Origin: Escherichia phage vB_Eco_ZCEC08
Direction: 5' to 3' (one strand)
Length of the DNA stretch: 47,926 nt
Sequence record: PP213477.1
Notes under the pieces: model-generated
Database searches by the model: none
Told to the model about the DNA's origin: nothing
Seen by the model: only the letters and a program-made list of their open reading frames with translations
Shown: piece by piece, positions 6,441-44,635 of the stretch
Layout of the letters: every line of letters begins with the position of its first letter
Position numbering within the stretch: position 1 is the first letter of the stretch
Made by a program: the position numbers and the translations under genes

Positions 6441-6477
6441 ATGTAGATACTATGCACCACCACTCAATCTACGTCAA
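6441..6477 (-). promoter_or_regulatory. candidate minus-strand promoter (TTGACG ... TAGTAT) with inverted ATCTAC motifs
   Basis: reverse complement reads TTGACGTAGATTGAGTGGTGGTGCATAGTATCTACAT. Confidence 0.35.
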
Positions 6478-9808: not shown

Positions 9809-9853
9809 CTTGACGTTTCTACATCATTTAGTCAATACTTGTTGACGTAGATT
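9809..9853. promoter_or_regulatory. divergent regulatory region with inverted TCTACATCA / TGACGTAGA motifs
   Basis: CTTGACGTTTCTACATCATTTAGTCAATACTTGTTGACGTAGATTG between divergent genes. Confidence 0.3.
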
Positions 9854-14608: not shown

Positions 14609-15682
14609 ATGGAAAAGATTATTTTTACCAAAGACCTGGTAGCCAACTCCGCAGTGGTGGCTGACCAGTGGAAACATCTCACCATCGACCGCAAGGTGTT
14701 CTGCAACGCAGAAGCTGAGCTGGCGAAAACTTACGGTGTTAACGCCACTGCACTGGTAACGAAAGATTACTGGCGCGACGTGGATAACGTCACCACCCGC
14801 GTTTTCCGTAACGAAGCTGGTCAGGACATGATGGCCGACCTGATGGGCATCGCGGCAAACATCAATATCGGTAAGACTGTAGCAATCAGCCGCATTGCTT
14901 CCGATGCTGGTAAGGTCGTCCGCACCCTGTCTGGTCAGGAGCCGGAAGATTTGGATAAAACTCGCTACGATTACACTGGCGATGTGATTCCAATCTTCAA
15001 GACTGGCTACAGCCGCGAATGGCGTGAACTGCTGGGTATGCAGTCTGAAGGTTTTGACCCACTGCTGGACGATCAGGCTAACGTTACCTTTAACCTGCGT
15101 TCCGACATGGCGCAGTACCTGCTGACTGGCGACCAGACCCTGAACGTGAACGGCGTTTACACTGGTTACGGTATCACCAACCACCCGAACACTATTCAGG
15201 TTAACCTGAATGCTTCCGGCGGCCTGAATATCGACCTGCAAACCGCAACACCAGATGAAATCGTGACCTTCTTCAATCAGGATTTCCAGGCTATTCTTGA
15301 TGCGCAGAACGTATTTGAGCAGGTGACTCTGTGGGTTTCCCCGGCAGTGCGTCGCAGCTTCATGCGTCCGTATTCTGATGCAGCAGGCTTCAAAGGCGGC
15401 ACAGTTGAGCAGTACATCACGCAGTTCGGCAATGGTCGCATCGGCAAGATTGGCACCAACTTCCTGCTGACTGGTAACCATTTCGTTGGCTATGTTCGCA
15501 ACGACATGTACATCCGTCCGCGTGTTGCTCAGCCTGTCTCCACCTATGCGGCGGCACGTGTCAACCCGCACGATAACTTCAACTTCCTCGTGTGGTCAGC
15601 TTTTGGGCTTCAGGTGAGACGCGATTTTGCAGGGAAGTCAAAAGTGTTTAATGGTTACGGGACGCAAACACCATTGGCTTAA
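14609..15682 (+). CDS. major capsid protein
   Basis: 357 aa; position after scaffold/decoration genes; followed by a strong terminator. Confidence 0.7.
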   Translation: MEKIIFTKDLVANSAVVADQWKHLTIDRKVFCNAEAELAKTYGVNATALVTKDYWRDVDNVTTRVFRNEAGQDMMADLMGIAANINIGKTVAISRIASDAGKVVRTLSGQEPEDLDKTRYDYTGDVIPIFKTGYSREWRELLGMQSEGFDPLLDDQANVTFNLRSDMAQYLLTGDQTLNVNGVYTGYGITNHPNTIQVNLNASGGLNIDLQTATPDEIVTFFNQDFQAILDAQNVFEQVTLWVSPAVRRSFMRPYSDAAGFKGGTVEQYITQFGNGRIGKIGTNFLLTGNHFVGYVRNDMYIRPRVAQPVSTYAAARVNPHDNFNFLVWSAFGLQVRRDFAGKSKVFNGYGTQTPLA

Positions 15683-15689
15683 GATGTAA

Positions 15690-15718
15690 TTTAAAGGGGG
15701 CATCAGCCCCCTTCTTTA
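15690..15718. terminator. bidirectional rho-independent terminator
   Basis: GGGGGC-ATCA-GCCCCC then TTCTTTAT; stop of the convergent minus gene lies in the loop. Confidence 0.5.
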
Positions 15719-16518
15719 TACCTGATTTCACCATACACCATGTATTGCAGCATGTAGCAGAATTCCCATTGCGTCATATCCTTGCGCAGCCACTTTCTGT
15801 TTTTCTTCCAGTTGAACTCTGCCGGCTCAGCTTTGAGGTTATGTAGTGAATTCACCAGCTCTGGGTAGACAAGGTTGTTTTTTACAAACCAGTCCACTGG
15901 AAGTATGTGATCTATATGCCAGCAACTACGGTTATCAAAGCTCATCCATGGCTCCATAGTTGACTCTATGTGTTTTATAAAATCACTTTTTGTATAACCA
16001 AGCACATCATCAACGGTTTTATCAATGACAACGTCGGACAACCTCATATCAATTCTTTCAAGCATCTTCCTTAGGAACACGTGGTGGGGGTGTTTCTTTT
16101 GCCATTGCTTGACGTTATCCAGAGCCTTTTTGTTGCCTTTCTCAGAGTAATACCATTTACGGTACGCATCCCTTCTTCTTCTGAGAAATTCCTCCATCTT
16201 TTTTATGTCTGAGCTTAATCTTTTTTTGTATTTCTTGTGAAACTCCCTATCTCTCTCTTTCTTCATTGCCTTGAATTCTGGATTGTTTTTATTTTTTAAC
16301 CACTCTTCTTTGTTTTTCTGCCTCATCTTTTCTTTGTATTCAGTAGTAGACCTTCTTGCTCTTGTTCTTTCGTATACGCAATGCTTGCATCCTCCTGATG
16401 CTGTAAAAAACACAGTTCCACCGCATACAGAGCATGGAACCCATTCGCATACAAATTGCTTCAATCCAGCAACCCTTGCTTCTTGCGCAGCTTCTTTTCT
16501 TGTCTTCATAAAAGTCAC
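15703..16518 (-). CDS. HNH-like nuclease with N-terminal zinc ribbon
   Basis: CxxC...CxxC at N-terminus, lysine-rich middle, C-terminal WHIDHILP...LHNLKA...N motif. Confidence 0.45.
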   Translation of the reverse strand: MTFMKTRKEAAQEARVAGLKQFVCEWVPCSVCGGTVFFTASGGCKHCVYERTRARRSTTEYKEKMRQKNKEEWLKNKNNPEFKAMKKERDREFHKKYKKRLSSDIKKMEEFLRRRRDAYRKWYYSEKGNKKALDNVKQWQKKHPHHVFLRKMLERIDMRLSDVVIDKTVDDVLGYTKSDFIKHIESTMEPWMSFDNRSCWHIDHILPVDWFVKNNLVYPELVNSLHNLKAEPAEFNWKKNRKWLRKDMTQWEFCYMLQYMVYGEIRYKEGG

Positions 16519-16596
16519 TCCTAATTTGGTTTTATATTACTACAGGTGTAATGAGTGTGCTACAATTAATCAGCATTAACTCACGAGGATATTTAA

Positions 16597-16794
16597 ATGG
16601 CTAAATACGAAGTCATCGCACGCGGAATCTTTGTTAAAGAGAAGGGAAAGATTCGTGAATTGCAGCTTGGCGAGGTGATTACCGAACCAGACGAGCATCT
16701 GCTACCAAAACTGCGCATCATGCCAGAGCTGGAAAAGTCTTTCGAAGTCGCAACCCCACAACAAAAGACGACAAAGAAAAAGAAAGCAGAGTAA
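16597..16794 (+). CDS. hypothetical protein (65 aa)
   Basis: ORF track; own terminator downstream. Confidence 0.45.
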   Translation: MAKYEVIARGIFVKEKGKIRELQLGEVITEPDEHLLPKLRIMPELEKSFEVATPQQKTTKKKKAE

Positions 16795-16799
16795 ACTGA

Positions 16800-16826
16800 A
16801 CCCGCATTATGCGGGTTTTTTATTTG
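16800..16826 (+). terminator. rho-independent terminator
   Basis: ACCCGCA-TTAT-GCGGGT followed by TTTTTTATTT. Confidence 0.55.
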
Positions 16827-16949
16827 GATCTTCTATGACTGTAAGATGAGACATAGCTTATTCGCATAACATCACTTGATACTGCGGTGCAGAATATCAA
16901 TGCGTATGTCTCGTGGTTTGAGGATGATACTTATCTTGCGTGATAAAAG

Positions 16950-16976
16950 AAAAGCCCCGTAAAGGGGCTTTTTATT
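16950..16976. terminator. bidirectional rho-independent terminator
   Basis: AAAAGCCCC-GTAA-AGGGGCTTTTT; ends the minus operon 20130->16978. Confidence 0.55.
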
Positions 16977-16977
16977 G

Positions 16978-17514
16978 CTACAGAAGCATAGGCATAACAA
17001 CAATCTTCGCAGTCTCACCAGATGGCGCATTAAGACAGCAAACTGCGGCATTTGTGTTTCCATTCAGTTCAATTTTGACGCCACAGAATTTAGGATTAAA
17101 CAGCTTCGCCACTTTCTCGATATCCACGAGATAACCAGCATTGAAGCCAATTTTCTCTGCTGCTTTCGTTTCCTTTGGTATAACGCGATCAATATCAGGG
17201 AATCGTCCGTCAATCTCTTCGCAGATACCAGCGCCAACAATCACACCAGCTTCATCATAATACGTTGCAATTTTCGACTTTGTATCAATGATGGCGTAGT
17301 CATAGCGTTTTGTTGGTGACTTGCCAATCTTGATAATCACATTTTCTGTCAGCTTATTGTCATGGCTTCCGCCAATGAATGCGCGATGACCGTCAGTTGA
17401 TGCAATGCGACCATCAGGCATAAAGCAGATGCCATTCAGGTAGTAGCGCACATCATTGCGCGCCTGAAATATTAATGCTGACTCAAGTAATAGTTTGCTT
17501 ATTTTTAGTTTCAT
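16978..17514 (-). CDS. DNA polymerase III beta-clamp (DnaN) single-domain homologue
   Basis: motifs TDGHRAF, FPDIDRVIP and C-terminal VVMPMLL resemble the DnaN C-terminal domain (TDGHRLA, FPDY.RV.P, MPMRL); only about 179 aa. Confidence 0.5.
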   Translation of the reverse strand: MKLKISKLLLESALIFQARNDVRYYLNGICFMPDGRIASTDGHRAFIGGSHDNKLTENVIIKIGKSPTKRYDYAIIDTKSKIATYYDEAGVIVGAGICEEIDGRFPDIDRVIPKETKAAEKIGFNAGYLVDIEKVAKLFNPKFCGVKIELNGNTNAAVCCLNAPSGETAKIVVMPMLL

Positions 17515-17687
17515 CACTTCACCTTAATCATATGCTGTTTTGCAACCTTCAGGCACTCTTCGAAAATGCCTCCCTTCTTAGCGCTCTGATTGCGCTTGTA
17601 ATACTGAATCGCCGCATCAATTGCCATCTGGTCAATGTCAGGCAGCTTGTTGCGAAGTTGTTTTTCAATGAATTGTTCTGGTGTCAT
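17514..17687 (-). CDS. small hypothetical protein (57 aa)
   Basis: hand-translated MTPEQFIEKQLRNKLPDIDQMAIDAAIQYYKRNQ...; couples methyltransferase and clamp-like genes. Confidence 0.3.
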   Translation of the reverse strand: MTPEQFIEKQLRNKLPDIDQMAIDAAIQYYKRNQSAKKGGIFEECLKVAKQHMIKVK

Positions 17688-18487
17688 TAAACGGACCTCA
17701 TGAATGCTTTAATGAATTCTGCTGCGACTTGTGGAACTATGGCATTACCATAACCGCGCAATCGTCCCACTCTTGCGGATACCCCATGAGTTGCCTCGCA
17801 AAATCCGCCTGGTATGACTCTAGTTTCCTTATCTGCTCCATGGTTGGGTTTCCATGAATCCCATAAACATGAAGCCACATCTGGCGATAAAGAGTATCGT
17901 TCCTGAATTTCCCGTCCTTTCTGTAAAATGACTTGCTGAGATTCCCGTAATCCTTCCATCCTCGCGCCGTTGGTGTCGCCCATCCTCGCGCCAAAGATGA
18001 TTCTTTTCCTTTCCTGTGGAGAGCCGACGCTGCAAGCTGGCAATACTGACGCCCCGCAGGCGTAGCCTTTGTCTTCCAGGTTAAGGAATACAAAATCGAG
18101 CCAGTGCTTCCCAATTGCTGCTGCAACCTGCTCTCCAAACAGCAATTCAGGCTTGCACTCTCTGATGAGCCTGAGAAATGCTGGGGCAAGGTGTCGATCG
18201 TCGTCAAATCCGAGAGACTTACCGGCAACGCTAAACGGCTGGCAAGGTGGTGATCCTGTCCAGAGTCGAGTGCTTTCTGGTATTCCTGCCAGCTGGAGTG
18301 CAAGGGGCCACCCTCCGATTCCGGCAAAGAAGTGACACTGTGTAAATCCTTCCAGGTCTGAAGGGGTGACTTCGGTGATTGATCGTTCATCGACATATCC
18401 GTAAGGAATTAGTTTATTGTTAATTAATTCACGCAGCCATGCCGCTGCGCCCTTGTCCCACTCATTGTAATAGTGGACCATCATCAC
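17687..18487 (-). CDS. DNA (cytosine-5) methyltransferase
   Basis: motif I FFAGIGG, motif IV PPCQPFSVAGK, GEQV (ENV-like) motif. Confidence 0.8.
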   Translation of the reverse strand: MMMVHYYNEWDKGAAAWLRELINNKLIPYGYVDERSITEVTPSDLEGFTQCHFFAGIGGWPLALQLAGIPESTRLWTGSPPCQPFSVAGKSLGFDDDRHLAPAFLRLIRECKPELLFGEQVAAAIGKHWLDFVFLNLEDKGYACGASVLPACSVGSPQERKRIIFGARMGDTNGARMEGLRESQQVILQKGREIQERYSLSPDVASCLWDSWKPNHGADKETRVIPGGFCEATHGVSARVGRLRGYGNAIVPQVAAEFIKAFMRSV

Positions 18488-19293
18488 ATCTTCTCCAGAA
18501 TTGCCATCACCTCGTGAATATCAGCAACAGGAATCTTGATAAACTCCTCATTCTCTGCCACTACATGACCAGCAAGAAGAATAACGTGGTCAGCTGGCTT
18601 CAGTAACTCAATCAGTCGGTCTACTGGCTTAATCTTTTTCGACTTAAGCACCTTCGCCGTTACCTTATCCTTGCCTTGCGCCTTCGCTTCTTCGACTGCC
18701 TCGTCGATAACTTTAACCGCATCATCGCCATGTTCGCGAGTTACTGCTACGGCATTTGCATAGCTGATTTGCCCTGCACTGATTCGCGCTTTTACTTCGG
18801 CTGGCACATCACCCAGTGACAGGTGCATCTGCACGTCAGAAACTGAGCGCCCTACCTTCTTGGCGATTTCCTCGTTGGTCCAGCCAAAACCCTTCAGTCG
18901 CGTGTAAGCCTTTGCGCGTTCAAACGGGTCAAGCTGCTTACCCTGACTGGACGACACCATGAAGGCGATTTTATCTGCTTCGCCTCCTGTGAAATCCTTG
19001 CACTCAATACGAACAATTGGTGCGCCACGCTCAATGGCACGCAATGCGCCTAGATAGCGATGCTGACCATCAAGAATGCGGATTCCCTTCTCATCAGGAA
19101 TAACTGTTAATGCTGGTAATGGCTGACCTGATTCCCAGCACTGCGCGAAATACTCCACATGCTGCTCGTCTGCTTCGCGGATGTTGTATCCCGGCTCCAG
19201 ATAGATTTGCTCCACTGGCACGAGATAGGTTTTGTTAACAGCGATTCCGTTGCGCGTTTCTTTGTCTGAATAGATTTTGCTAAGTGTTTTCAT
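18484..19293 (-). CDS. ParB-like nuclease domain protein
   Basis: ILDGQHRY (ParB/Srx DGxHR motif) plus helix-turn-helix-like TNEEIAKKVGRSVSDV; start moved to residue 32 (MKTLSK). Confidence 0.65.
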   Translation of the reverse strand: MKTLSKIYSDKETRNGIAVNKTYLVPVEQIYLEPGYNIREADEQHVEYFAQCWESGQPLPALTVIPDEKGIRILDGQHRYLGALRAIERGAPIVRIECKDFTGGEADKIAFMVSSSQGKQLDPFERAKAYTRLKGFGWTNEEIAKKVGRSVSDVQMHLSLGDVPAEVKARISAGQISYANAVAVTREHGDDAVKVIDEAVEEAKAQGKDKVTAKVLKSKKIKPVDRLIELLKPADHVILLAGHVVAENEEFIKIPVADIHEVMAILEKM

Positions 19294-19294
19294 A

Positions 19295-19486
19295 TCATTC
19301 ACCACTTTCTTCCAATAATTGCTCGTAATATGCGACGTACTCATTAGCAAGATGGTACAGGCGCTCAGCAGACTTGCGTTCTGCATTACTTAAGTCACCA
19401 ATAGACTCAATGTTGCCAATTGCATCAACACAATCATTGAAGTCTTGCTCTGTATTACGAAATCGACAGTAGGACATGTTTGCCAT
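19295..19486 (-). CDS. hypothetical protein (63 aa)
   Basis: ORF track. Confidence 0.4.
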   Translation of the reverse strand: MANMSYCRFRNTEQDFNDCVDAIGNIESIGDLSNAERKSAERLYHLANEYVAYYEQLLEESGE

Positions 19487-19488
19487 GA

Positions 19489-20130
19489 TTAATCCTCATC
19501 ACCAGAATTAGCAATATCGTAAAACTGACCGTAGGTTATCTGCTTAAAGTTATCAGGTATCGTTACCTGTCCGTGACCTTCATCTTTTGTATTTGGCACA
19601 GCAAAAATCAAACAATCATCCTTTTTCGGGTGTTTGCCTCCATAAGTAGAAAGCATTGCAAAACCAAATCCGCGACCAGATTTCTCACCAATGCCGGTAC
19701 GTGCGATGCCATAATGGTTAACAATGTAGTCCTTCCATTCTGGCAATAACTTTAATTTCTCGTTTGCCTCGCGCATCACTGCGTCCAGCTTTTTGTTGTA
19801 TTCACGACCATCCTTTGTGTTTCCTTTCCCACGAACAATAACCACGCGCTGACCTTCCCAAAAATCTTCACGTTTTATTGTTACAGGGCATGGAAATTCA
19901 AATTTATTGCTCCACGCAAAACTCTCAAGCAGGCCACCGCCAACAGCGCCCCAACTGCGCGTTGTGGTAAATGCGACAGCTCCAACCTTTTTCATTGCGT
20001 CACCGAGAATTTCATTGCGGCGATTCTTGATGTCATCGTATGCGTCGATTAGTTTCTTAACATCATCACCTTCAACCATGTAATAATCATAATGTTTTGC
20101 GTTACTACTCATCTTCATCACCTCTAACAT
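19489..20130 (-). CDS. hypothetical protein (213 aa); start may be 18 nt downstream
   Basis: ORF track; GAGGTG precedes the third in-frame ATG; no motif recognised. Confidence 0.5.
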   Translation of the reverse strand: MLEVMKMSSNAKHYDYYMVEGDDVKKLIDAYDDIKNRRNEILGDAMKKVGAVAFTTTRSWGAVGGGLLESFAWSNKFEFPCPVTIKREDFWEGQRVVIVRGKGNTKDGREYNKKLDAVMREANEKLKLLPEWKDYIVNHYGIARTGIGEKSGRGFGFAMLSTYGGKHPKKDDCLIFAVPNTKDEGHGQVTIPDNFKQITYGQFYDIANSGDED

Positions 20131-20139
20131 TTATTGTTG

Positions 20140-20200
20140 TTTCTACGTCACTAACTATAAACGCCACATCAATCTACGTCAACAGGAATATGCTAAAATC
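20140..20200. promoter_or_regulatory. divergent promoter region with two direct TCTACGTCA motifs and an extended -10 (TGCTAAAAT)
   Basis: GTTTCTACGTCA and TCAATCTACGTCAA about 32 bp apart; TGnTAAAAT upstream of the plus-strand genes. Confidence 0.35.
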
Positions 20201-20229
20201 ATGCTAATCAAACAACAGGAGATTTAAAC

Positions 20230-20349
20230 ATGGGTTCAACCAACTCACCATCTCGTTCGCGCGCTACTGGCAACACAAAAACTGGCGGCAAAACTGGCGT
20301 GGTGAAGCCAAACGGCTCTACCCGTTCACCATCGCGCGGTAAAAAATAA
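20230..20349 (+). CDS. small basic Ser/Thr/Gly-rich peptide (39 aa)
   Basis: hand-translated MGSTNSPSRSRATGNTKTGGKTGVVKPNGSTRSPSRGKK; RBS-like AACAGGAG upstream. Confidence 0.3.
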   Translation: MGSTNSPSRSRATGNTKTGGKTGVVKPNGSTRSPSRGKK

Positions 20350-20789
20350 TGTTCGGCGCAGATGTTGCCATCATGATCATGTATGTGCTTGGATTTGCCT
20401 GCACGGGCATGGTTGCGTTTCTGGTGTTCATTCCGGCAATGGTGATGTCTGTGTATCTTGGATGGGTGCTTGTTGATTCATTTCCCGCCGAATATCTGTA
20501 TTACCTTGCGCAGTGTATGGTCTGGTTGTTTCCGGCTATTGCGCTGCGTAAAAGTACAAAGATGGCGCTCTGCGTGCTGACGATGAGCCTTTACGAATGG
20601 CTGGTTGCGATAGAGTCATTCGTATGGGAATTTATCACGCCTGTAGAAACGCCGCTTCATGCGCAGTACGCATTTATTATTATCGGCATCCATCTGTTCA
20701 TCCTTTCCATCACTTTTAAATGGGGCGGCGAAATTGGACATTATTCTTGGCGTGGTTGCCATCGTTTTTTCGCTGATTCAAATCTATAA
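20349..20789 (+). CDS. polytopic membrane protein (146 aa)
   Basis: several hydrophobic segments; ATG overlaps upstream stop (TAATG). Confidence 0.5.
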   Translation: MFGADVAIMIMYVLGFACTGMVAFLVFIPAMVMSVYLGWVLVDSFPAEYLYYLAQCMVWLFPAIALRKSTKMALCVLTMSLYEWLVAIESFVWEFITPVETPLHAQYAFIIIGIHLFILSITFKWGGEIGHYSWRGCHRFFADSNL

Positions 20790-20821
20790 GTGCTGGAAAC
20801 ATATTATCAGCGAGACTCGCA

Positions 20822-21106
20822 ATGAACGAAACACTAAGACAGGCCGCAGAGCAAGTTATAAGCGGGACGACGGGGCAGGTGATTGACAAGGCTGGATATG
20901 CCTCCATTGGTACTGGTATTGGACTGAAAGTTGCAGAGCAAACGCCTGTCACGCAGTCTTATTTTGAGGCTATGATTCCACACAGTCTGACAGAGTGGGC
21001 GGCAGTAGCGTCAATCCTCGGCGCCCTGTCTCTGGTAATAAAGAACCTCTTTGAAATGTGGTGGAAGGTACGGGAGTCAAAAAAAAATGGCAGCACCAAC
21101 ACCTGA
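20822..21106 (+). CDS. hypothetical protein with C-terminal hydrophobic segment
   Basis: ORF track; WAAVASILGALSLVIKNLF. Confidence 0.4.
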   Translation: MNETLRQAAEQVISGTTGQVIDKAGYASIGTGIGLKVAEQTPVTQSYFEAMIPHSLTEWAAVASILGALSLVIKNLFEMWWKVRESKKNGSTNT

Positions 21107-24585: not shown

Positions 24586-24633
24586 AATCTACATCACCAC
24601 CCCGCAGGTGTCAACACCACTGAGATGATATAA
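24586..24633. promoter_or_regulatory. back-to-back promoters: minus TTGACA-17-TAGATT and plus extended -10 TGATATAAT
   Basis: same architecture as 23193..23236; drives the minus moron operon and the plus tail chaperone gene. Confidence 0.5.
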
Positions 24634-37771: not shown

Positions 37772-37803
37772 TACCTCACTTGTTATTGTCAGTTGAATCT
37801 ACA

Positions 37804-38229
37804 TCAATCTACATCGAAAGGCAAGCCAAAATAGAAAAGCGTGGCTTTTTTTAGTTCATCAAGACCATAAGCGATGGCAGCATAATGACCAAGCCTGCAC
37901 ATCTCTGTTAGCACTGCTGATTGATCCTTGCTCACCCTGCTTTTGCTTTTATCGCGGCGCTTTGCTTCAATCATCCCACAACTGTGATTTACCCCCGGAG
38001 TCATTATCACATTGTCGCCTATACCAGCCTTAACCCCCATCTTCTGGCGCTTCAATACAAACTGGACGCGGCTGGATGTTCCTGTTTCATTCGGGACGTG
38101 AAACCAGAGCACATCAGGGAAACGGTGTTGCATCCATGTTCCATAACCCATCTGGTCAGTCTCCTCTTTTGGGCATTCTCCTCGATAACCGCTATCAAAT
38201 ACCCATATACCGCTATCAAGCTGCTTCAC
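37804..38229 (-). CDS. VRR-NUC domain nuclease
   Basis: FHVPNETG...MGVKAGIGDNVIM...IEAKRRD...SKDQ pattern. Confidence 0.6.
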   Translation of the reverse strand: MKQLDSGIWVFDSGYRGECPKEETDQMGYGTWMQHRFPDVLWFHVPNETGTSSRVQFVLKRQKMGVKAGIGDNVIMTPGVNHSCGMIEAKRRDKSKSRVSKDQSAVLTEMCRLGHYAAIAYGLDELKKATLFYFGLPFDVD

Positions 38230-40446: not shown

Positions 40447-40476
40447 CAATCTACACCAACAATCAAGGGTCAATTT

Positions 40477-41458: not shown

Positions 41459-41875
41459 TTATTCTTTGAACTCTGGCGCTTCAGTCCAGAAAGCTACATT
41501 TCGCAGCGACTTACCAGTGTGATTGCACCAGTATATTCCTGAGTCGTCATACCTGGCAGTAACCTTGACGCGATCAGCATCAATAATAACAACCTCCTGT
41601 CCATCTTTAGGGTCGAAAAGACGCGCATCTTTCCAGTTGGCAATCTCATTAAAGGAAAGAAGAATATAGCCGGGAAGATAATCTCCGACATCATCGATGT
41701 GATCTATGGCTCTCTCCGTTCTCTCTCCTGTGTAGCCTCCATTCCACTCATAAAGAATGATAGTGTCTCCAACCTTAAAATCACGGCCCTTCTTTATTAT
41801 TTCAGCTTTCTTGTGCCCGGTAACTACAGGCCAGAAGTGCTCAGGTAAAATTTTAAGTTCGTGTGTTTTGCTCAT
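41459..41875 (-). CDS. ASCH-like / DUF3850-like protein
   Basis: THELKILPEHFWPVVTGHKKAEIIKKGRDFKVGDTIILYEW pattern. Confidence 0.45.
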   Translation of the reverse strand: MSKTHELKILPEHFWPVVTGHKKAEIIKKGRDFKVGDTIILYEWNGGYTGERTERAIDHIDDVGDYLPGYILLSFNEIANWKDARLFDPKDGQEVVIIDADRVKVTARYDDSGIYWCNHTGKSLRNVAFWTEAPEFKE

Positions 41876-43467
41876 TTCAAACCCCTCATAAATCTCATGC
41901 GCTTAACAGCAGCAGAAAGATAATTTCTAACCGTTGAGTTCATTCGCAGACCATCCCATGAGCCATCACCGCACATCTTTATAGCTCTTGGGTTATCCCT
42001 GTCCAGCATTAGTGGTGAATGCTTATTTTCCTCAATAGCAAGAAGAACCTCATAAACAAACTTATCAGGTGTTAGTGTGATGTTATTAGAGTCAGCAGAA
42101 TTGATTATCTTTTTAATTCTATCACGACACAGCTTGTTCTTTATAACAGACAAGTAAGGCGTTTTAATGAATGCCTGTGATTCACAAATTCGCTTAATTT
42201 TTTCTACAATGTTCTCCCATTCAGTATTTTCAAGTCCATCAAACTCCTGTTCGCCCTCAAGGAATCTTTGCAGACCAGCGAGATGCTCAAGAACTACGAT
42301 ATATCCCCATTCGACATGCTCCATCGTAACTGCTGGCGTCATTCCACGGCGACTTGACAGATCTGCGTAAGCCGCAAGCGTTGCAAGGTCTACAATCATT
42401 AGCCCCATGCGCGGGATAACGTCACCAACAACACCATCGCGATCACCAAGCTCACTTTCCAGTTTCATAGACAGAGATCTGTGCAGTTTTTTCACATCAT
42501 CATCAGCCCATACAGCGTTAGTTTTCGCGGTAAGAATCCTACCCTTCCACTCATTGATTATTTTTCTTGAAAGTGTGCCGCTAGCTTCCACATCCTTCAT
42601 CGCTGGCATTTCCTCACCAGCAAGATGTCCAAGCTGAAACAGCACTCGCCCCATGCCGCCATCTTTCTGCCATGAACGCGCAGCATCTATTCCCTGCTCT
42701 GGAGTGACAGTAATCAGCGGAACAAATTTTGCGTTTTCAATTCCACCGTCTTTTGTTGCAAGTTCGTACTCATTCATTGCCGACTTGAGCGCGCGCCCAA
42801 CGCTGTGGTCCATCATCGCAAGGCGCTTATAATCTATGACGCCTTTCCCATCATCACCACCAGTAAGTGGCACTATCCATCCCTCAGCACTTGCTGCCGC
42901 CATGATGCGTTTTGGGTTTTGTTCCCAAGTAAGGTTTTCAAGCAGCTCCTTGATTATTGGTCTGTTAGGCACCCACACGCCGCCATCAGTGAGGCCTCTA
43001 TACCACGCCATAGTACCGCCAAGATATGCATTGCGCGGGTTGTTCCAGTCTTCAAGATGTTGTTTGTCATCGTTCACAACGTAGAGCAAAGAACCACCTC
43101 CAGCAATCAGGTCTAACTGCATCTGTTTCGTCGAGGTTGATTTAGATGCGCAAACTCTGGAGCCAATTCCCAGTGCATTGGAATATGCCCTAACGAAACT
43201 CACAGGGGCACCCTTACCTGCACCAGAGCGAGCCACCAGAAATATACCAGTATTGCAGATACTACCTGTTGGACCAATCAAATATCGTCCAGCCATCGCC
43301 TGAGTAAGACCCAAGGCACCAGTTAAGCGATATCTCTCCCCATCATTACGGCGCTCAAAGTTTTTCGCAATCTCATCCATAAACTCACCAAGTGCACCAG
43401 GAGCCTTCCTGTTTATACCCATAGCCATAGAATCAAAATCAATAGCGCCCATCAATATACTCTCCAT
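41872..43467 (-). CDS. hypothetical replication-module protein (531 aa)
   Basis: ORF track; degenerate P-loop-like LVARSGAGKGA; function not recognised. Confidence 0.5.
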   Translation of the reverse strand: MESILMGAIDFDSMAMGINRKAPGALGEFMDEIAKNFERRNDGERYRLTGALGLTQAMAGRYLIGPTGSICNTGIFLVARSGAGKGAPVSFVRAYSNALGIGSRVCASKSTSTKQMQLDLIAGGGSLLYVVNDDKQHLEDWNNPRNAYLGGTMAWYRGLTDGGVWVPNRPIIKELLENLTWEQNPKRIMAAASAEGWIVPLTGGDDGKGVIDYKRLAMMDHSVGRALKSAMNEYELATKDGGIENAKFVPLITVTPEQGIDAARSWQKDGGMGRVLFQLGHLAGEEMPAMKDVEASGTLSRKIINEWKGRILTAKTNAVWADDDVKKLHRSLSMKLESELGDRDGVVGDVIPRMGLMIVDLATLAAYADLSSRRGMTPAVTMEHVEWGYIVVLEHLAGLQRFLEGEQEFDGLENTEWENIVEKIKRICESQAFIKTPYLSVIKNKLCRDRIKKIINSADSNNITLTPDKFVYEVLLAIEENKHSPLMLDRDNPRAIKMCGDGSWDGLRMNSTVRNYLSAAVKRMRFMRGLK

Positions 43468-44013: not shown

Positions 44014-44635
44014 AGATAAAAAATAAAATTAACGCAACACAAAACAGGTCTAACCAGCAACAATAGCTACCACACTTAATAACTGGTCAGACCACCATCC
44101 CGTATCTGATATATGTGGATGGCGCCTGTCGTTCAATTTGAACTCGATTTTTACCTAATTTACCGTATATTTATCGGTCGGTTTTTTGCATAAATAATTG
44201 ATTTATAGTATTTTACCTGTTTTACCGTAACTCTAAGGAGTATTTTCATCATTAAGAGTGGTAGTATATTAATTGGTCTAATTTTAAAGAAATCTAATAA
44301 AATCAATATATTAATATAAAAGAATAGCTTACTTACTTCTATAGTATTTACCTGGTAAAACCGGTAACTCCTCCGAAGGCCGCGTCATTACTGGATTCAT
44401 TTTTACCGCCTGTAGGTAAATACAGTAGTTTTCAATCCGTTATTGCTCTTCTAAGCTGTTGATTACCGGTACTTTATTTGGGAAACCGGCATTTACCGGT
44501 TTTTGTGGTGTGATTAATAATCGAGCAACTGGTCCTGTTTCACCAGAACCAACTAATGCGACGCCTGAAAATCATGTTGACGTAGAATCATCATTGATGT
44601 AGATTGAACTAATCGAAACAAACGAGGGTGAAGAG
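44014..44635. repeat. AT-rich non-coding region with iteron-like TTTACC(G) repeats and ACCGGT palindromes; candidate origin
   Basis: direct TTTACC copies near 44148, 44159, 44211, 44221, 44347, 44401; inverted copy near 44415; ACCGGT near 44360, 44465, 44495; no ORF of 60 aa or more. Confidence 0.35.
44577..44605 (+). promoter_or_regulatory. sigma70-like promoter TTGACG-17-TAGATT
   Basis: hexamers read directly; about 30 nt upstream of the ATG at 44636. Confidence 0.45.

Follow-up and report, generated by a model that had tools for sequence, protein, structure and literature searches.

A truncated beta sliding clamp with a conserved binding pocket in Escherichia phage vB_Eco_ZCEC08 belongs to a large phage family

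Bacterial replication and repair proteins dock on one central hub, the beta sliding clamp, which is also an antibiotic target. What would a phage that relies on the replicase of its host do with about half of such a clamp? The question is raised by a minus-strand cassette of six genes at positions 16978-20130 of Escherichia phage vB_Eco_ZCEC08 (record PP213477.1), of which we analysed the whole stretch of 47,926 nucleotides, here called the window. The last gene of the cassette encodes a small protein related to DnaN, the beta clamp, which we call the mini-clamp. The source phage is a virulent Skatevirus-like siphophage; the region 16900-20250 was 96.6% identical to Escherichia phage HC6, and the other matches were about 220 Salmonella, Escherichia and Klebsiella siphophages of the Skatevirus cluster, including the BASEL phages Bas77-80, at 80-97% identity. 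The near-identical phages HC6 and Bas79 have no annotated gene for a DNA polymerase or a clamp loader; judged by that annotation, the phage is without a DNA polymerase of its own and must use host DNA polymerase III (Pol III). We found that the mini-clamp keeps the pocket for clamp-binding peptides and has lost the surfaces that close the ring.

The mini-clamp consists of one and a half clamp domains

The gene is as follows.

16978-17517, minus strand: mini beta-clamp of 178-179 residues with the motifs TDGHRAF and FPDIDRVIP and the C-terminal end VVMPMLL; matches DnaN

A preliminary description of this DNA, made from its letters alone, had likened the 179-residue protein to the C-terminal domain of the beta clamp only, and had called a stand-alone clamp fragment unusual. 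The relationship to DnaN was borne out, as phmmer, profile comparison and predicted fold all gave the beta clamp. In the phmmer comparison with E. coli beta, residues 8-171 aligned with DnaN 136-303 (E 4e-11), and a second, weak stretch paired residues 122-178 with DnaN 316-365. A family profile built from 133 members and aligned to E. coli DnaN gave a probability of 99.5% (E 8e-23) and the following correspondence: residues 8-121 match DnaN 136-256, DnaN 257-315 is deleted, and residues 122-179 match DnaN 316-366. The protein is therefore not the C-terminal domain alone but domain II plus the C-terminal half of domain III, with 35% identity overall to E. coli DnaN. The three domains expected of a clamp of about 366 residues were not found: compared with the 366 residues of E. 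coli DnaN (2POL/1MMI), the 179-residue mini-clamp holds only DnaN 136-256 and 316-366 and lacks domain I, DnaN 257-315 and the dimer-interface residues. PF00712 (DnaN domain I) had no match in the mini-clamp, and its scores stayed below the cut-offs of the DnaN families (TIGR00663, 33.5 bits against 137.65; PF02767 and PF02768, 15.8 and 14.5 bits against 27).

We predicted the structure with AlphaFold2 (AF2), a check that the preliminary description had proposed, and obtained a DNA-clamp fold. With an alignment of 104 sequences the model was compact (pLDDT 96.4, pTM 0.90) and consisted of a domain-II-like unit, an interdomain linker and a single beta-alpha-beta-beta-beta unit, with a short Gly/Pro-containing loop in place of the second helix of domain II. 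This run superseded one with a shallow alignment (30 sequences, at least 70% identity), which gave a poor model (pLDDT 60).

We also ran a profile search over 1.84 billion representative proteins (50% identity clusters). The results showed 4380 matches at E<=1e-3 and 530 clusters at E<=1e-10. The best matches were nearly all 170-210 residues long, and full-length DnaN appeared first near 1e-16. Family members were found in 298 phage records from many hosts and also in prophages, so that what had been taken for an unusual fragment is part of a large phage family. The family is mildly basic, with a median isoelectric point (pI) of 8.25 versus 5.25 for DnaN. Our literature searches on truncated or phage-encoded clamps found no paper describing it. 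Some GenBank records already name the gene "DNA polymerase III beta subunit"; this label was known, and what is new here is the widespread mini-clamp family as a variant of the beta clamp.

The pocket is conserved and the ring-closing parts are missing

The mini-clamp goes back to the beta sliding clamp of bacteria, and the parts that it retains, domain II and the second half of domain III, are the two that jointly form the hydrophobic pocket for clamp-binding motifs. In the clamp, this pocket takes up QLxLF-type peptides of Pol III alpha, epsilon and delta, Hda, Pol II, Pol IV, Pol V, MutS, MutL and others. In E. coli beta, subsite I is made of R152, L155, T172, G174, H175, R176, L177, P242, R246, V247, V360 and M362, and subsite II of H175, N320, Y323, V344, M362, P363, M364 and R365 (PMC11139829). 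All 18 of these residues fall within the retained segments, and 15 of the 18 are identical to E. coli. Across the 133 members, the entropy of the pocket positions averaged 1.29 bits versus 2.72 elsewhere (Mann-Whitney p 1.8e-6); the mean column identity in a related 104-sequence alignment was 23%. Pocket residues occupied 10 of the 25 most conserved positions (hypergeometric p 1e-5), and the equivalents of R152, G174, P242 and M362 were 97-99% conserved in the family.

The residues that close the ring, namely I78, F106 and R103 in domain I and I272, L273, E298 and E304 in domain III, all lie in the deleted parts. With domain I and DnaN 257-315 lost, both sides of the dimer interface are gone, and the missing domains and interface residues therefore make a canonical head-to-tail ring impossible. 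Helix alpha2 of domain II, one channel-lining helix of the three expected, is absent as well. Since the pocket is kept and ring closure is lost, the capture of clamp-binding host proteins is likelier than the clamping of DNA.

The ratio of nonsynonymous to synonymous substitution rates (dN/dS) of the mini-clamp gene was 0.08-0.15, indicating purifying selection. Both the mini-clamp gene and the neighbouring gene for a 57-residue protein are missing from the viable, large-plaque, genome-reduced mutant seszw_250L (PMC9825161); the mini-clamp is accessory, not essential.

Neighbourhoods of the mini-clamp family

We compared the neighbourhoods of the gene in 11 distant phage or prophage contexts, among them the following.

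Lambdoid Hafnia phage: mini-clamp between cII and O/P-like replication genes
Metagenomic lambdoid contig: mini-clamp directly after lambda-P
One further distant context: mini-clamp after RecT/YqaJ, with ParB_N and Mom downstream
Vibrio phage: mini-clamp before Dam and SSB
Aeromonas prophage: mini-clamp before a fused MT-A70/C5 methylase gene and SSB
Edwardsiella phage: mini-clamp after a family-A DNA polymerase
Dhillonvirus and Gorganvirus: mini-clamp alone and antisense within structural modules

The recurring neighbourhood was one of replication, recombination and DNA modification.

Possible functions of the mini-clamp

On balance, we consider it somewhat probable that the mini-clamp is a soluble, non-encircling pocket module that serves as a decoy or adaptor for clamp-binding proteins. 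It would bind clamp-binding motifs through the conserved pocket without encircling DNA. As a decoy, it would compete with the host clamp for clamp-binding proteins; as an adaptor, it would hold such a protein at phage replication or recombination intermediates. The idea of a "clamp mimic or replication modulator" in the preliminary description survives in this form, and the kept pocket and lost ring-closing parts, as read from the sequence, would sharpen it. Speculatively, the neighbouring recombinase, SSB and methylase genes would fit a protein that interferes with mismatch repair or with another clamp-dependent step in the processing of phage DNA.

Known proteins offer partial parallels. Beta* is an ultraviolet-induced product of an internal dnaN start that comprises roughly domains II and III and is reportedly a trimer. 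The monomeric beta variant I272A/L273A binds delta with about 50 times the affinity of the dimer (dissociation constant, KD, ~7.5 nM) and gives no processive synthesis (PMC11139829). Like the mini-clamp, both forms keep the pocket without the normal dimer, and the monomeric variant is a precedent for a pocket-only binder. The monomeric variant and beta* are laboratory or host-encoded proteins with complete domains, whereas the mini-clamp is a phage-encoded natural family with 1.5 domains. Overproduction of MuC of phage Mu titrates the clamp pocket and disturbs the Hda-dependent control of initiation (PMC12867686). Taken together, the findings on monomeric beta and MuC make a decoy or adaptor mechanism plausible. 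Phage manipulation of the clamp interaction hub is likewise seen with MuC, with T4 gp33/gp55 acting with gp45, and with Twort Gp168; these act through a clamp-binding motif of their own or by obstructing the DNA channel, whereas the mini-clamp encodes the pocket itself.

Several points weigh against a role as decoy or adaptor. The mini-clamp of this phage, which ends VVMPMLL (last codons at 16978-16983), has L at its penultimate residue, the equivalent of R365, a position that is R in 83% of the family and in all close relatives, and its residue at the L177 position is A. The conservation of some pocket residues could be partly structural, as they also pack the junction of domains II and III; moreover, the family was gathered by profile similarity, so that members keeping the pocket motifs are favoured. 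If the decoy took up Pol III subunits, the phage itself would suffer too, as it relies on host Pol III. No constant partner gene of the mini-clamp was found in the 11 distant contexts, whose neighbourhoods vary. Finally, we looked for clamp-binding motifs in the phage proteome (six frames, Q[LIVMAF]x[LM][FLI] plus the hexamer form) and obtained 16 matches, 4 of them in real genes, but only in structured regions; no partner emerged. Two of these candidates were set aside. QMHLSL in the helix-turn-helix (HTH) domain of the ParB-like protein of the cassette is probably structured and a chance match. QLDLI (within QMQLDLI) of a 531-residue ATPase of the replication region (41872-43467, minus strand) resembles the optimal QLDLF and is probably also a buried chance match, because it lies between a Walker-A-like SGAGKG and LLYVVNDD.

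Among the alternatives to a decoy or adaptor, a real processivity factor deserves most attention, although we think it unlikely. The mini-clamp would then oligomerise anew to encircle or grip DNA and tether host Pol III without the host clamp, either by half-domain pairing, in which four copies of 1.5 domains would make up the six domains of a ring, or as a C-shaped dimer like that of UL44. A clamp fold with an intact polymerase-binding pocket would suit this role, as would the mildly basic character of the family, the direct adjacency of several members to replication genes and the need of the phage for host Pol III. Both canonical ring-closure surfaces are deleted, however, the Gly/Pro-containing loop replaces a channel-lining helix, and near-identical phages have no annotated clamp loader. 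The gene is also dispensable in seszw, with a large-plaque phenotype, and it often stands as a lone antisense gene within structural modules. The herpesvirus proteins UL42 and UL44 differ in having two full domains, a basic DNA-binding face and a viral polymerase of their own; there is no such polymerase here.

A poison or remodeller of the host clamp is more doubtful still. Edge strands of the mini-clamp would pair with a beta monomer where domain I, or the half of domain III that the mini-clamp lacks, would otherwise sit, so that ring closure is prevented or hybrid clamps are formed. Clamp domains do have a common fold and associate by pairing of edge strands (PMC11139829), and phages are known to target beta, as Twort Gp168 does (PDB 7evp). 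Such a mechanism would nevertheless have no need of the pocket, which is the most conserved feature of the family; the residues of the natural interface are absent, and the beta dimer is very stable, with a picomolar KD (PMC11139829). A block of the host clamp would also stop replication of the phage.

It is very improbable that the clamp-like open reading frame (ORF) is a decaying fragment without a function of its own. A truncated copy of a cellular gene that is dispensable in the laboratory might be read in this way, but the low dN/dS, the confident and compact fold prediction and the recurrence of the 170-210-residue architecture in hundreds of 50%-identity clusters and many phage lineages all speak against decay. 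A RusA-like Holliday junction resolvase can be practically dismissed, as that name comes from a family label only (phrog_3007, 3.8e-61, and RefSeq annotations), whereas no RusA is among the Pfam or NCBIfam matches and the beta clamp is indicated by sequence, profile and fold alike. The RusA-like label has spread through many phage genomes, for example RefSeq NC_054639 (Skate) and NC_054647 (Akira).

Layout and flanks of the cassette

The other elements of the cassette and its flanks are listed below.

20182-20154, minus strand: sigma-70-type promoter, TTGACG-17-TATAGT, with 10 of 12 consensus matches
19489-20130, minus strand: 213-residue ORF, EaC/DUF5420 family (phrog_2260, 2e-58)
19295-19486, minus strand: 63-residue acidic protein, pI 4.4 (phrog_8760, 2.9e-25)
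18484-19293 (ORF to 19386), minus strand: ParB/Spo0J-like DNA-binding protein, 269 residues, with ILDGQHRY (phrog_1033, 1.8e-90)
17687-18487, minus strand: orphan C5-cytosine DNA methyltransferase, 266 residues, with a short target-recognition region (phrog_363, 3e-75)
17514-17687, minus strand: 57-residue basic protein, pI 9.4 (phrog_4439, 8e-23)
16972-16950, minus strand: intrinsic terminator, GC-rich hairpin AAAAGCCCC-TTTAC-GGGGCTTTT with a T-rich tail
14609-15682: capsid gene (DUF6260, 2.8e-113), upstream of the cassette, with the head-tail genes downstream of it
15703-16518, minus strand: endonuclease VII/HNH-like gene, 271 residues (phrog_1035, 5.4e-25), between the capsid gene and the cassette
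In the same interval: 65-residue ORF
20349-21106: two membrane-protein genes, between the cassette and the head-tail genes

The ORF translations confirmed the six minus-strand ORFs and all motifs quoted for them in the preliminary description, and records of relatives annotate the matching genes. The promoter and terminator that it had placed at the two ends were both located. Its placement of the cassette between the capsid and head-tail genes was right in that both flank it, but further genes intervene on each side. PADLOC gave the methyltransferase as its sole match.

The endonuclease VII/HNH-like gene sits just beyond the cassette terminator and has a homologue of 77% identity in ST1UNAM. 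In Klebsiella relatives, the features annotated under the match include endonuclease VII genes, and HC6 and the Bas phages have different genes there. The gene looks like a mobile insertion of the homing-endonuclease type. A plus-strand terminator (16798-16818) closes the 65-residue ORF, and about 130 bp of apparently non-coding DNA follow before the cassette terminator. An Rfam scan of 15600-20500, which includes this stretch, gave no match at E<=0.1.

Promoter, terminator and a recurrent motif

The promoter would probably have the operon transcribed by host RNA polymerase, early in infection, and the terminator, flanked by an A-run and a T-run, is plausibly bidirectional. The -35 element of the promoter falls within a recurrent phage motif, TTGAYGTAGAWT, which occurs in 13 copies in the genome versus 1.0 expected by chance; 13 copies were reached in none of 100 shuffles. 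The copies are mostly intergenic and stand ahead of operons on both strands, including operons in the region of the helicase, primase, SSB and recombinase genes. They include the following.

6466-6477, minus strand: single copy
9842-9853, plus strand: single copy
20171-20182, minus strand: single copy, in the cassette promoter
24586-24597, minus strand: single copy
40448-40459, minus strand: single copy
37796-37817, minus strand: double copy
44577-44605, plus strand: double copy

A related sequence, GACGTAGAAAC, lies downstream of TTGAYGTAGAWT at two sites, and in the cassette promoter it stands just past the -10 hexamer. The TTGAYGTAGAWT sites look like a phage-specific family of promoters or operators, for which the ParB-HTH protein is one candidate binding factor. 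Because the motif is common to their upstream regions, the cassette may be co-regulated with the early genes of DNA metabolism.

The ParB-like protein, the methyltransferase and the small proteins

Three features mark the ParB-like protein: a ParB-like fold at the N-terminus, the motif DGQHRY and a ParB HTH domain. Library matches included PF17762 (2.9e-11), KorB (4.4e-6) and Spo0J 1vz0 (5.8e-13), and the protein is also Noc-like. Of the term "ParB-like nuclease" in the preliminary description, the ParB type was upheld by the HTH match and nothing supported "nuclease"; on its sequence, the protein is best described as a putative ParB-fold DNA-binding protein. The CTP-binding motifs are degenerate in the alignment with Spo0J, with GQHR for GERR and SSSQGK for ENLQR, so that the GERRxRA/ENLQR pattern was not found, and the resemblance to the DGQHR/DndB type is weak. 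The records of HC6 and Bas79 show no annotated ParA, and no recurring palindrome of at least 12 bp that would suggest parS-like sites was found in the window. The gene had a dN/dS of 0.01-0.03. Its apparent overlap with the 63-residue ORF arises because the longest ORF was taken; relatives start ParB at 19293 (269 residues).

The methyltransferase matched PF00145 with 78.2 bits against a cut-off of 22, in agreement with the Dcm type proposed from FFAGIGG and PPCQPFSVAGK, both of which are present; its best solved match was M.HhaI (4.6e-12). The catalytic motifs I FFAGIGG (FxGxG), IV PPCQPFS (PCQ), VI FGEQV, VIII QERKR (QxRxR) and X GNAIVP (GNAxxP) are readable in the translation, and the protein is predicted to be a bona fide C5 enzyme. 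Its motifs do not follow the canonical order I-II-III-IV: a motif II-like YYNEWDK (residues 6-12) precedes motif I (52-58), and the spacing from motif I to PCQ is only about 22 residues versus 57 in M.HhaI. A motif III-like DERSITEV is also N-terminal to motif I, FFAGIGGWPLALQLAG (residues 52-67). The order appears from the sequence to be permuted, II-III-I-IV. The whole phrog_363 family aligns across the full length of the methyltransferase. An ATG-initiated ORF of 219 residues in another frame over this gene (17737-18396, minus strand) is probably not coding, because it is less conserved in ST1UNAM than the methyltransferase frame (95.0% versus 98.1%).

No restriction endonuclease is annotated adjoining the methyltransferase in relatives. 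BASEL Skatevirus isolates are reported to be markedly sensitive to the restriction-modification systems tested (PMC11990801); the methyltransferase is therefore no general anti-restriction shield, and any protection must be site-specific. The synonymous substitution rate (dS) of the methyltransferase was about 0-0.005 against HC6, Bas77 and Bas79 and 0.07 against ST1UNAM, where ParB had 0.58 and the 57-residue gene 0.55; across all comparisons it was 0-0.07, versus 0.1-0.58 for the flanking genes. This low dS relative to the flanks points to a recent mobile insertion between the ParB and 57-residue genes, and the near-identity of the methyltransferase together with its absence from seszw indicates a recent horizontal sweep into a fixed slot. 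Adjacent ParB-like and C5 genes are likewise known from phage and prophage modules of ParB and methyltransferase and from M.HhaI-like orphan Dcm-type methylases. Compared with ParB-methyltransferase modules, the genes here are separate, their pairing is facultative, and the ParB has an HTH domain and degenerate CTP-binding motifs.

Two proteins of the cassette had been described as unknown. The 213-residue ORF among them has homologues of 50-90% identity called Eac/DUF5420, with 50-72% for those so named by NCBI; P0384 carries PF17457, and through these named homologues the ORF is assigned, as a probable member, to the EaC/DUF5420 family of enterobacterial prophages. Compared with PF17457 directly, it scored 15.2 bits, under the cut-off of 26. 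EaC homologues begin at 20112, which gives 207 residues. The 63-residue protein is present in HC6 and Bas77 and had no match in Bas79, ST1UNAM or seszw. The stop of the 57-residue gene overlaps the start of the mini-clamp gene, and the gene is kept beside the mini-clamp in Skatevirus phages.

Mosaic composition of the cassette

The six genes had been presented as one unit, which is not fixed: at least 80% of the cassette was present in only 5 of 224 matching phage records. The order in seszw is an acidic 92-residue protein, ParB, the 57-residue gene and the clamp-like gene, without the methyltransferase; Akira, KFS-SE2 and STGO-35-1 have no methyltransferase among the features annotated under the match. 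In Bas77, an "anti-restriction protein" occupies the slot of the 213-residue gene. What this phage group conserves is a core of ParB, the 57-residue gene and the clamp-like gene. The cassette is assembled from exchangeable modules, with the 213-residue gene in a variable leader slot, and the operon overall is ordinary mosaic phage cargo, in which the ParB-like protein, the orphan C5 methylase and EaC are ordinary accessory genes.

In the comparison with HC6 (16788-17500 there, 16978-17687 in the window), EaC, the 63-residue gene, ParB and the methyltransferase were 99.5-100% identical and the mini-clamp 85.5%. HC6 has an extra gene of 58 residues between the mini-clamp and the 57-residue gene. 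The clamp gene may thus mark a mosaic breakpoint or have undergone allele exchange.

Significance

The family would correct a widespread mis-annotation, both in PHROG 3007, where it is called a "RusA-like Holliday junction resolvase", and in the records that call it "DNA polymerase III beta subunit". We suggest tentatively, and with less than even confidence, that many phage lineages encode a minimal, ring-incompetent copy of the pocket as a sponge or adaptor for host proteins with clamp-binding motifs, and that this copy travels with genes for recombination, replication and methylation. Examples of its targets would be MutL/MutS, Hda, translesion polymerases and the delta wrench. If this is true, the mini-clamp would be a compact monomeric tool of 19 kDa with which clamp-binding proteins could be titrated in vivo or pocket ligands screened. 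It would also represent a previously undescribed way in which phages redirect replication, mismatch repair or translesion synthesis of the host, and a new class of host-takeover or anti-repair factor that imitates the hub itself, not the ligands of the hub.

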